DNA of 64,000 bases from Amoebidium appalachense (lineage: Eukaryota > Protista > Ichthyosporea): contig CAVNZM010000004.1 in assembly GCA_963693365.1 (NCBI GenBank), positions 8,717,093-8,781,092 on the forward strand, read 5' to 3'. Both the position numbers and the translations under genes were made by a program. The notes under the pieces are model-generated. The model saw nothing but the letters and a program-made list of their open reading frames with translations, did not search any database and had not been told where the DNA came from. This document shows positions 10,863 through 37,674 of the stretch, piece after piece; position 1 is the stretch's first letter, and every line of letters begins with the position of its first letter.

Positions 10863-11138
10863 CTATTGGCCAGTATACAGTGGGTTTTCCATCTGAGCCA
10901 CCGCCGGCTGGTACAACGGATTCTGGTCGTTCACCATAGTGTTGAATAGAGCGTCTTGTTCCATCTGCCTAAGTGACGCCATGTTTGCATAGTTGCGACG
11001 CCGCGCAACTGCAAAAAGTAGTCCTGCACCGGCAAGCGCCGCAGCCGCCGCCCCGCCCACCGCACCGTAAACTGGGGTTTTGTCGTTCTTCTTGGGAATC
11101 ACGACGATTTTGGACTGGCACGCTACACCGTCGCACGA
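10863..11138 (-). other. Terminal exon: Gly/Ala-rich TM helix and NPLY-x8-NPLY cytoplasmic tail
   Basis: [26 protein letters not shown]...[21 protein letters not shown]; acceptor ttaacag| at 11139. Confidence 0.92.
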
Positions 11139-35100: not shown

Positions 35101-37674
35101 TTGTAAAATCCGTAACCGTGAGCTGGAAGCTTGGGTTGTTGCCGGCCAGCGCCAAAATCTCGGCTGCATTATAACTACCAACACCGACGGCCAAAACTGT
35201 TATTCCGGCCGCCCGGGCCGCGTTAGCAGCCGGAATCGGGCCGTCATTGCTTGTACCGTCCGTAATTATGACCATGATCTTGGTGGATTCGGGACGGGGG
35301 GATGCATTGAAAAGTTCGGTGGCTGCGGTGATGCCTGCAGACGTGGGCGTACCTCCGCCTCCATAACTGCGGGGTTCGGGAAAAGTGTGTCAGTGAGTGA
35401 TTTTTCATAAACGTTGAATGATTTTTGTGGTGCTGGTATGTGTATGTGTGTGTGTGTGTGTGTGTGGGGGGGGGGGGGGGGGGGGGGGGGGGGGGGGAGA
35501 GGGGGGGGGGGAGGGGGGAGGGGGAGGGGGATGTGGGGAAAAGGTGGGGAAGGGGAAGGCCTGGGGGAGGGGGTGGGTTGGGGGGGGGGGGGGGGGGGGG
35601 GGGAGGGGATGATCGGGGGGAGGGGGGGAGCGGAAGGGGAAAGAGCGGAATAGGAAATGGGATGGAGTTAAACGAAGTTGGAGGAAGGTAGAGGGAAAGG
35701 GGAAGGGGGAGGGAGGAGAAGAAGCCTGAGGGAGACGGAGGGGGAGGTTGGGTGAGGGATAGGGGAGGTGGGTGGAGGCTAAAGCAAACATCTTTGAGTG
35801 TGTTTCTTTTTTTCTTGTGCAGTCAGTAATGGAGGAACAGACGGGGGGGGGGGGGGGGGGGGGGGAGGGGGGGTGATCTTTGGCGGGAAGGGAGAAATGA
35901 AAAGGAGAAATGGATGAGGTATGACAAAGGGTGGTGGGTAGTTGCCCGGTGGTGGTTTGGTTGGGGGGGGGGGGGGGGGGGGGGGGGGAGGGGGGGGGGA
36001 GGAGGGGGGGGGGGGGGAGGGGGAAGGGGGGGATACGTACTGAAGGGCAGACACAAAGCTGACGAGCTGATCCTTGTCTGAAGCCCTCGCATCGGAAAGT
36101 GCCAAATCCTTGAATGCGGCATTTGTACAGGAAACAGAGCACCCATTGTTTCCGCAGCATGGGAATTTGGTTTTATCCAAGTATGCAGCGTTGTTAAGAG
36201 GGGAGTTAAGGCAGTCCCCCTGCCCACACACCTGGCTGCACAGGGGGCAGTTACCACCGAACCTCACCACACCGACTCTTGAATTGCTCGGGCCGATGGT
36301 GATGCGCGGGTGGTTGATGAAAGAATTGACAAACTTGCGCGCTGCGGGAGAGGCGGGAGGGGGGGGGGAGGGGGGGGGGGGGGGGGGGTGTCAATTTGAG
36401 TATGGAACCTAGACCCGTCATGCAGTGGCGTCAATAACCCATGAGCCCCGTGGGAGAAGGAAGGGGAGAAATGGCATTACTGTACGTTGCGAATATCAAA
36501 ATGGCGAAAGCGTAAGAATACTATCATGGTCGTAGGGTTTAACTTTCGGACCGCATTGGGATATCAAGTTGACTCAGCCCCGTCACACTGGTGCAGAAGT
36601 ACACATATCGTATGTCAACTCTTTAATGTTCCTTCCATTACCTTTAATGTTGCATTATATGCAATTTATATTTATAGAAGCCTTGCCCGTGAACTAGCAT
36701 ATAGTTTTTCAATATGTCTGAATTCACGATTCATGTTTGGCTCTTAAGAACTTGTGGTATGTTCATACCATCTCTGCCGTGTGCTTGTAACCTCATCATT
36801 ACTGCACATGCACAAAACTATGCACGTGAAACAGAATGTGAGACTGGCGCTGAGGACTGTCCGGAATTCGGCCGAGAGTTTGTGTGAATTTATATCGTGG
36901 ATCTCTTATGATGGTATTATTGTAGAAGAGGTGTTTACAATGCCTGTTGTTTATTAGGCTTTTCACACATGTACATGTAAGTACCGTGGAAACTATATCA
37001 CTGCAGTATGCATAGCACTGTGCTCTTCAAATAGTTGCATGACGGGTTTTTTTTGAAAATGAAAATAGAATAACTACTTTATTTGCATTCATGGCTGTAT
37101 TAAAACCTGGGACGAATACGCCGGACCGCAGTATGGCAAAACCCGATGGCTATCACATTGTGTATTGAAACTGTAAATTGTCAACGACAAGGCGAGCCTC
37201 AGGGCAGACTCTGTCCAAAAGAAGTCTGCAAAACACACATCGAAACACCAAAATACTCCTTATACGACACTTATTTAAAGGAACTTCAGTATTTATTCAA
37301 CTGTGACTTGGGTCGATCAATGGACAGACACTACTATTACTATGCACGGGCAAACGGCCACGAGCATGTATGCAAACATCATCGGAAAAGAATCTTCGAA
37401 CGGATGGTTGTGTCAACAAATAAAAACACACACACACATTGAAAAAAAAAAAAAACCATGGGCGGAAGTTCTTACCGGCCACCCAACATAGACGGTCAGC
37501 GCACAGGGAGCTCATAGACATGCTACCGCTCATATCCAGCACGAAGATAATGTCGAATTTCCCATTCTGGCAGTTGTATGTGTCTACCGCCGTCTGTGAA
37601 AACGCTACCGTGGCTAAGCACAACGCCAGCCCAAGGCGCAGCAGCGGCACCCGAGCTATTCCTCTACCCTCCAT
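10863..37674 (-). CDS. Giant multi-exon adhesion receptor: SP - vWA (MIDAS) - ~35 thrombospondin type-1 repeats - TM - tail with two NPxY motifs (~2,670 aa, 46 exons)
   Basis: Hand-spliced with phase-compatible GT-AG introns (one acceptor reads CG). Approximate exons: 37476-37674, 36040-36341, 35056-35366, 34572-34692, 33959-34079, 33074-33257, 32288-32423, 31827-31916, 31245-31353, 30694-30802, 30276-30388, 29629-29815, 29138-29247, 28633-28757, 28083-28242, 27548-27745, 27254-27368, 26920-27062, 26427-26588, 25846-25994, 25256-25338, 24633-24902, 24080-24239, 23621-23733, 23166-23269, 22449-22659, 21903-22091, 21378-21500, 20726-21032, 20211-20290, 19542-19829, 18920-19079, 18396-18514, 17617-17946, 17025-17219, 16541-16803, 15961-16109, 15670-15752, 15162-15320, 14741-14848, 14189-14386, 13798-13927, 13016-13295, 12295-12590, 11579-11767, 10863-11138. 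Repeated CPVDC-WxxW-C-RTR-GG-C motifs throughout. Confidence 0.9.
33630..33945. repeat. AT-rich intronic minisatellite, ~30-bp subunits with an ~86-bp higher-order period
   Basis: catctatttcta recurs near 33719, 33805 and 33891; acttcatggtatcta and caaatttca also recur. Confidence 0.85.
35056..37674 (-). other. Signal peptide and von Willebrand factor A domain exons (exons 1-3) of the receptor
   Basis: [16 protein letters not shown] signal; [11 protein letters not shown] (DxSxS), [13 protein letters not shown] (MIDAS Thr), IMVIITDG (MIDAS Asp), [10 protein letters not shown]. Confidence 0.93.

Follow-up and report, generated by a model that had tools for sequence, protein, structure and literature searches.

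A predicted single-chain receptor joining a MIDAS-bearing vWA head and a long TSP1 stalk to an integrin-beta-like double NPxY tail

Talin occurs widely among unicellular eukaryotes that have no integrin pairs, and PMC12686525 treats the question of which receptors it pulls on as open. The gene analysed here gives this question a concrete form: can one chain that is not an integrin carry both a metal-dependent ligand-binding head and an integrin-type tail, and would such a tail be tied to actin? It lies on the minus strand of a 64,000-nucleotide stretch of contig CAVNZM010000004.1 (positions 8,717,093 to 8,781,092; this whole stretch is called the window, and all coordinates refer to it). [quoted passage not shown] The gene model, the register of the tail against integrin beta-1 and the precedent of the Dictyostelium receptor SibA support that description. 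We consider it reasonably probable, from the sequence and its analysis, that the product is a SibA-like, single-chain type I adhesion receptor that couples the MIDAS head to talin and actin.

Acceptors and donors were listed around each coding core, and the exons were then joined by coordinates. The resulting predicted model has 45 exons, which splice into 7848 nucleotides encoding 2615 residues in one open frame with a single stop (10865-10863, minus strand). Its 44 introns measure 208-1134 nucleotides, 43 of them with GT-AG ends. As far as the DNA itself can tell, the gene is confirmed as real and intact-looking, with the architecture described earlier: the order of signal peptide, MIDAS-bearing vWA domain, some 35 TSP1 repeats, transmembrane helix and short tail is borne out by the spliced model, Pfam and the repeat profile, the tail measuring 46 residues where about 45 had been given. 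The earlier count of 46 exons is corrected to 45, the difference probably arising because a short coding AC run in exon 22 (24239-24080) splits that exon when it is read by eye. Of the 44 junctions, 25 lie in register inside TSP1 repeats and 16 close to repeat borders; 2 others interrupt the vWA domain, and 1 coincides with the border between vWA and TSP1. At the final junction the last TSP1 repeat extends into the exon that encodes the membrane helix and the tail; this joins the tail to the TSP1 array.

A wrong join would change the picture, since the vWA exons might form a short secreted protein, or the array might end at the CG acceptor of intron 30, leaving head and tail on separate chains. 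The model is indeed predicted from DNA. The best-fitting acceptor site of intron 30 has no AG: the intron ends in CG within a CA microsatellite, at a place where both reading frame and repeat pattern would require AG, and a weaker AG 7 nucleotides further in keeps the frame only with a different donor. Counting against a single chain as well, intron 3, at the vWA/TSP1 junction, lies at a domain border where read-through meets a stop within a few codons, and a secreted vWA-only form is possible. On the other side, the introns are all of one size range with like ends, and exon 4 has no signal peptide of its own and, because no in-frame ATG was found in introns 1-3, no start codon of its own either. 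An alternative GT-AG pair at intron 30 preserves the frame but loses one cysteine, and the repeats are unbroken elsewhere. We give a wrong join very little weight. No RNA set was listed for the last exon. The listed pieces of three sequencing runs over 10700-14400 and 31300-46800 fall on repeats, introns and intergenic DNA and are uninformative either way; none of the joints listed among these pieces equals a modelled intron, which has no bearing on the model.

The head is an alphaI-type vWA domain. By hydropathy alone, the top two 19-residue windows of the protein are the predicted signal peptide before it (1.77) and the membrane helix (1.96). All five MIDAS residues are present (D47-x-S49-x-S51, T173 and D203), their roles and the alphaI type being assigned from what we take to be the general vWA pattern; betaI domains have a glutamate at the position held here by T173. 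Library scans, here and below, were made exon by exon and not on the whole spliced protein. Exon 3 has 26 PDB matches, mussel PTMP1, collagen VI, VWF and integrin alpha-L I domains among them; none is a chain of TRAP, MIC2 or an integrin beta, and the atlas neighbours of this exon are generic VWA clusters. The flanking cysteines C35 and C269 likely close the domain by a disulfide. A cysteine-rich insert with eight cysteines follows the second strand; it has no Pfam match and no convincing PDB match, and exon 2 folded alone gave no usable model of it (predicted local distance difference test score, pLDDT, 39). By vWA topology, this insert would lie on the MIDAS face, and integrin betaI domains bear their specificity loop at the corresponding place.

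The stalk consists of TSP1 repeats. Pfam TSP1 families were matched in 33 of the 41 exons from exon 4 to exon 44 (E-value at most 0.1). Exon 30 also has matches to structures of thrombospondin-1 and F-spondin. A profile derived from the repeats themselves, and hence partly circular, found 35 repeats at E-values of at most 6.4e-10, tiling residues 275-2531 with gaps of 2-21 residues, against 6 weak matches in 20 shuffles; it found no TSP1 repeat outside the modelled exons. Median pairwise identity among the repeats is 31%, indicating that the array is not a recent expansion. In most repeats, about 7-15 inserted residues follow the second cysteine pair, and a few short canonical repeats are scattered between these (11118-34680, minus strand); the full CxxS/TCxxG pattern occurs in only 2. 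The same interval encodes 37 N-glycosylation sequons, and an AT-rich minisatellite (three units of 86 base pairs) occupies 33691-33943 in intron 5.

The membrane helix is rich in glycine and alanine, and every fourth residue is small (G2549, G2553, A2557 and G2561), in a series that includes a GxxxG; the fold of the helix/tail alignment is of low confidence (pLDDT 58). Behind it the tail begins RRRNYAN and holds 4 Asp/Glu and 4 Lys/Arg among its 46 residues (isoelectric point 6.21; 4.05 if the three juxtamembrane arginines are left out). Its two NPLY motifs stand eight residues apart (NPLY-x8-NPLY) and are the sole NPxY motifs of the whole protein, and two NPxY arose by chance in 30 of 200,000 tail shuffles. 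Numbered back from the C-terminus, the final 47 residues pair with those of integrin beta-1 without a gap, and 10 are identical, among them both N-P-x-Y, the AV in between, the penultimate glycine and one helix glutamate. In a search of the PDB, a three-sequence profile of helix and tail retrieved the integrin beta-2 tail first (E-value 0.0094) and aligned to beta-1 residues 715-778 (E-value 0.73), while Pfam Integrin_b_cyt matched the tail at an E-value of 0.00047 (20.2 bits). We regard this likeness to integrin beta as real and statistically modest. The integrin-beta-type tail claimed earlier is upheld by the presence of NPLY-x8-NPLY and by a register that matches beta-1 beyond the two motifs. 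The accompanying claim, that the spacing is that of the talin and kindlin sites, holds for the alignment with beta-1 and is not supported for kindlin: PMC4325847 reports no kindlin from the genomes of premetazoans, so that, if the host is not an animal, some other protein probably reads the distal NPxY.

Two proteins passed an E-value threshold of 0.001 when 1.84 billion representatives were searched. One of them (P0001), a bee chitin-binding repeat protein, was rejected as a cysteine-repeat artefact. The other (P0002) is a 77-residue metagenome fragment from a cluster of two (P0002 and P0003), 43% identical across helix and tail, with NPLYQ as proximal motif, NPIF as distal motif and QFE where beta-1 has KFE. 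The two 77-residue fragments, which have a like helix and double NPxY/F tail, come from JGI/IMG contigs of 5591 and 11749 bases. For longer proteins (up to 2000 residues), word-based searches found none among 20 candidates for exon 2, 5518 for exon 45 and 4152 for exon 3, which is weak evidence. No relatives were found in contig scans of metagenomes, prokaryote genomes and viruses, the atlas neighbours of the tail exon held nothing above 0.83, and Rfam gave 0 matches.

Several observations weigh against talin coupling through an integrin-type tail. The Integrin_b_cyt score lies under the 23.4 cut-off, an unrelated dehydrogenase came second in the same PDB profile search (E-value 0.013), phmmer with the tail alone returned no matches, and P0002, known from its helix and tail, is at most a candidate orthologue. 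M2592 occupies the beta-1 tryptophan position and L2580 and M2583 the two helix phenylalanine positions, which we take to be talin contacts in integrins. The acidic pair of beta-3 that contacts talin, D723/E726 (PMC7768682), has N2576 and S2579 as its counterparts in this tail. Amoeba talin did not engage mammalian integrins (PMC12686525), so that motif likeness is no guarantee of talin binding, and NPxY also recruits clathrin adaptors (PMC6450878). Talin coupling is something that we infer from the tail, and NPxY is an endocytosis signal as well.

These points also bear on a different function, that of a capture or uptake receptor. Its NPLY motifs would be trafficking signals for PTB or FERM-like sorting adaptors, of the Dab2/ARH/Numb type for uptake or the SNX17 type for recycling, and not a load-bearing actin link. 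The LDL-receptor form of such a motif is FxNPxY, and the lack of a phenylalanine two residues ahead of either NPxY argues against this function, as does a beta-1 match that spans spacing, membrane distance and C-terminal end. In its favour, PTB domains in general recognise NPXY (PMC9197732), clathrin adaptors engage the NPXY of integrin beta-5 (PMC6450878), the tryptophan and acidic pair of the integrin talin site are absent from the tail, and in premetazoans without kindlin the distal motif needs a different reader (PMC4325847). Adhesion and trafficking roles are not mutually exclusive, and we judge trafficking, though the strongest rival, to be a rather unlikely explanation of the tail. A signalling receptor, on whose phosphorylated NPLY tyrosines phosphotyrosine-dependent PTB or SH2 adaptors would dock, appears improbable. 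The tail does have three tyrosines and no enzyme domain, and both kinds of docking have been described on integrin tails (PMC9197732). However, the distal motif of P0002 has a phenylalanine, which cannot be phosphorylated, and a stalk of 35 repeats better suits a mechanical tether.

To which known family might an adhesion receptor of this kind belong? The Sib proteins (SibA-E) are single-chain type I proteins with a vWA domain, a glycine-rich GxxxG helix and two NPXY motifs (PMC9197732, PMC9453864), and these features are all present here. In contrast, Sib ectodomains carry bacterial-type repeats R1-R4 (PMC9453864), whereas the whole stalk here is TSP1; the 45 exons gave no Pfam match to R1-R4, and there is no room for them outside vWA and TSP1. 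According to 10.1101/2020.04.29.069435, Sib proteins were seen only in dictyostelids. Membership in Sib was rejected, as the TSP1 stalk replaces R1-R4, in a comparison made by domain description. With integrin beta-1 the protein shares tail length, both NPxY motifs, as in the two NPxY/F motifs of integrin beta tails generally, their eight-residue spacing and the C-terminal end. Its head differs: DxSxS is present, but no acidic pair follows it and there is no NDxPxE, so that neither the adjacent metal site (ADMIDAS) nor the synergistic metal-binding site (SyMBS) of betaI is found. Pfam gave no matches on the 45 exons to integrin beta head families or to PSI, hybrid, EGF/cysteine-rich stalk or beta-tail domains, residues 275-2531 being filled by TSP1, and the alpha-clasp motif LLxxxHDRKE is absent from the tail. 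By the domain criteria of 10.1101/2020.04.29.069435, the absence of betaI, PSI and EGF stalk rules out an integrin beta.

The succession of signal peptide, MIDAS vWA, TSP1 and membrane helix is also that of TRAP, MIC2 and CTRP, a family recognised by a vWA and/or TSP1 ectodomain, a single membrane helix, an acidic cytoplasmic tail and a conserved tryptophan near the C-terminus (PMC7705850). The label 'TRAP/MIC2-like' given in the original prediction fits the ectodomain plan; it does not extend to the tail, where the defining tryptophan is absent (0 Trp in 46 residues) and two NPxY motifs are found instead. That the protein is a true TRAP/MIC2-family gliding adhesin on an apicomplexan-type motor has an almost negligible probability. 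The shared domain order and the small-residue-rich helix favour it, but a tail without tryptophan (by the criterion of PMC7705850) and, less clearly, with 4 acidic residues in 46, the lack of any TRAP/MIC2 chain among the PDB matches of exon 3 and the number of repeats, 35, all oppose it. Chromerids have vWA and TSP1 combinations without TRAP orthology (PMC4501334), which implies that this pairing recurs.

Other families resemble the protein in part. The type II ITGB proteins of Variosea (Amoebozoa) are likewise very large (1405-3641 residues), non-canonical beta-integrin-like proteins with extra domains (10.1101/2020.04.29.069435). They differ in having LamG3, vWD, Ig and EGF domains and a betaI-type head, and TSP1 is not among the domains listed for them. 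The Acanthamoeba mannose-binding protein and the Entamoeba lectin are non-integrin adhesion receptors with integrin-like tails and talin as their proposed partner (PMC12686525). Their ectodomains are lectins, unlike that described here, and talin binding is proposed only. Long TSP1 arrays in surface or matrix proteins are also known from THSD7A/B and coral coadhesin. We know of no vWA head in THSD7 and of no double NPxY tail in either THSD7 or coadhesin, the latter being the protein of that name in PMC3748352.

How would a single-chain receptor coupled to talin work? It would likely serve to grip surfaces or prey. At the MIDAS, a metal would bridge the vWA head to an acidic residue of its extracellular ligand, and the eight-cysteine insert may shape ligand specificity. 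A TSP1 repeat is about 5 nm long, and the 35 repeats would hold the head far from the cell on a stalk of about 150-190 nm if extended. The proximal NPLY would dock the talin head and so tie the ligand to actin, with M2592 taking the place of the integrin tryptophan and L2580 and M2583 those of the helix phenylalanines. Because the HDR clasp is absent, no alpha subunit is proposed, and clustering might occur via the small-residue face of the membrane helix. Force favours the open vWA state in alphaI domains and TRAP; here, tension along the stalk would be felt by the final helix of the vWA domain and could shift the domain towards an open, high-affinity state. Consistent with such coupling, force across talin A depends on SibA (PMC12686525), talin binding requires the proximal NPXY of SibA (PMC9197732), and NPXY/F motifs let Capsaspora beta tails recruit human talin (PMC6450878). 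It is possible, if on the doubtful side, that the gene represents a family of 'integrin bypass' receptors made of one chain, in a close animal relative, with an alpha-integrin-type head bearing a cysteine-rich specificity loop where beta integrins have theirs, a TSP1 tether of 150-190 nm, and a beta-like tail, descended or convergent, through which talin pulling would open the head directly without a heterodimer. If so, the ectodomain solution of apicomplexan TRAP would here be plugged into a talin motor link.

Table 1. Coordinates of the gene model and of the features predicted within it
Feature	Position in the window	Strand	Basis
Whole gene model	10863..37674	-	45 exons, 2615 residues; single open frame, 43/44 introns GT-AG
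Exons 1-9 (high-low)	37674-37476, 36341-36041, 35366-35057, 34692-34572, 34079-33959, 33256-33074, 32423-32288, 31916-31827, 31353-31245	-	
Exons 10-18 (high-low)	30802-30694, 30388-30276, 29815-29630, 29247-29138, 28757-28633, 28242-28083, 27745-27548, 27024-26920, 26588-26428	-	
Exons 19-27 (high-low)	25994-25846, 25338-25256, 24902-24633, 24239-24080, 23733-23621, 23269-23166, 22659-22449, 22091-21903, 21500-21378	-	
Exons 28-36 (high-low)	21032-20726, 20290-20211, 19829-19542, 19079-18920, 18514-18396, 17946-17617, 17219-17025, 16803-16541, 16109-15961	-	
Exons 37-45 (high-low)	15752-15670, 15320-15162, 14848-14741, 14386-14189, 13927-13799, 13295-13016, 12590-12295, 11767-11579, 11138-10863	-	
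Predicted signal peptide, about residues 1-26	37597..37674	-	hydropathy 1.77 over residues 6-24; cleavage site estimated
vWA domain, C35 to C269, exons 1-3	35060..37572	-	Pfam VWA, E-value 4.8e-15 on exon 3; PDB matches
MIDAS DxSxS (D47, S49, S51)	37522..37536	-	sequence
Cysteine-rich vWA insert, residues 98-138, 8 Cys, directly after second strand	36127..36249	-	sequence
MIDAS threonine T173, alphaI/TRAP type	35348..35350	-	sequence; role presumed from the vWA pattern
MIDAS aspartate D203 (TDG motif)	35258..35260	-	sequence; aligned to vWA domains in PDB matches
Array of 35 TSP1 repeats, residues 275-2531, mostly spondin type	11118..34680	-	Pfam; own-repeat profile
Intron 30 acceptor, CG instead of AG	19080..19081	-	assembly error, variant or non-canonical site
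Predicted membrane helix, residues 2550-2569, then RRR	11004..11063	-	hydropathy 1.96; continuous helix in low-confidence model
Cytoplasmic tail, 46 residues, without tryptophan	10866..11003	-	Pfam Integrin_b_cyt; PDB profile search
Membrane-proximal NPLY, 2597-2600, at the talin-site position of integrin beta tails	10911..10922	-	sequence
Membrane-distal NPLY, 2609-2612; distance to the C-terminus three residues, as in beta-1	10875..10886	-	sequence

Around the receptor gene, simple repeats make up about a quarter of the window. Upstream lies a multi-exon LIS1/PAFAH1B1 gene with LisH and WD40 exons (about 40700-52000, minus strand); its last exon is identical to mammalian LIS1 at 33 of 50 positions and has the same terminal residue, a likeness that would fit an opisthokont, in a comparison with the mammalian sequence alone. 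The suggestion that the host is a relative of animals is drawn only from this animal-like neighbour. Two LIS1 introns hold copies of a 499-base-pair element that are 99.6% identical (41209-41707 and 50592-51090), with weaker copies at 53136-53818. Contig depth over this element is very high in runs X1 and X2, and Rfam gives no match to it; it is likely a mobile repeat, recent and present in many copies. Downstream of the receptor gene, a repeat of 450-570 base pairs occurs as three diverged copies that are about 74% alike (7788-9664). Further on, an intronless open reading frame of 644 residues (2768-4702, minus strand) has a likely signal peptide, a membrane helix ending in five cysteines, a short tail, a furin-like site RRRRRD about 115 residues before the C-terminus and a G+C fraction at third codon positions (GC3) of 0.79. 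Pfam gave it only a weak Rib match, its exact sequence, like that of a second neighbouring open reading frame, was absent from the protein collection, and its layout presumably recalls that of ZP-domain proteins. A 370-codon open frame at 57105-58214 (minus strand) has a Cys/His cluster near its start that resembles a degenerate RING-CH/PHD finger, with no significant Pfam match.

No description of a vWA domain, a TSP1 array and a double NPxY tail in one protein was found in a literature search outside which most subscription papers lay, and the supplements of 10.1101/2020.04.29.069435, whose tables cover many amorphean proteins, could list such a protein. Of the 'undescribed adhesion system' proposed in the original prediction, the architecture was indeed not found in print, while non-integrin adhesion receptors with NPxY tails have already been described. 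Judged by its predicted domains, the gene would belong among these receptors, with a differing ectodomain and a function that its motifs suggest. It is a concrete candidate for a talin receptor, with a new ectodomain and a tail of 46 residues. If this tail binds talin, the beta-type tail would be a portable module joined to unrelated heads, and actin coupling of a vWA-TSP1 tether would have arisen twice, with one tail in apicomplexans and a different one in this gene.

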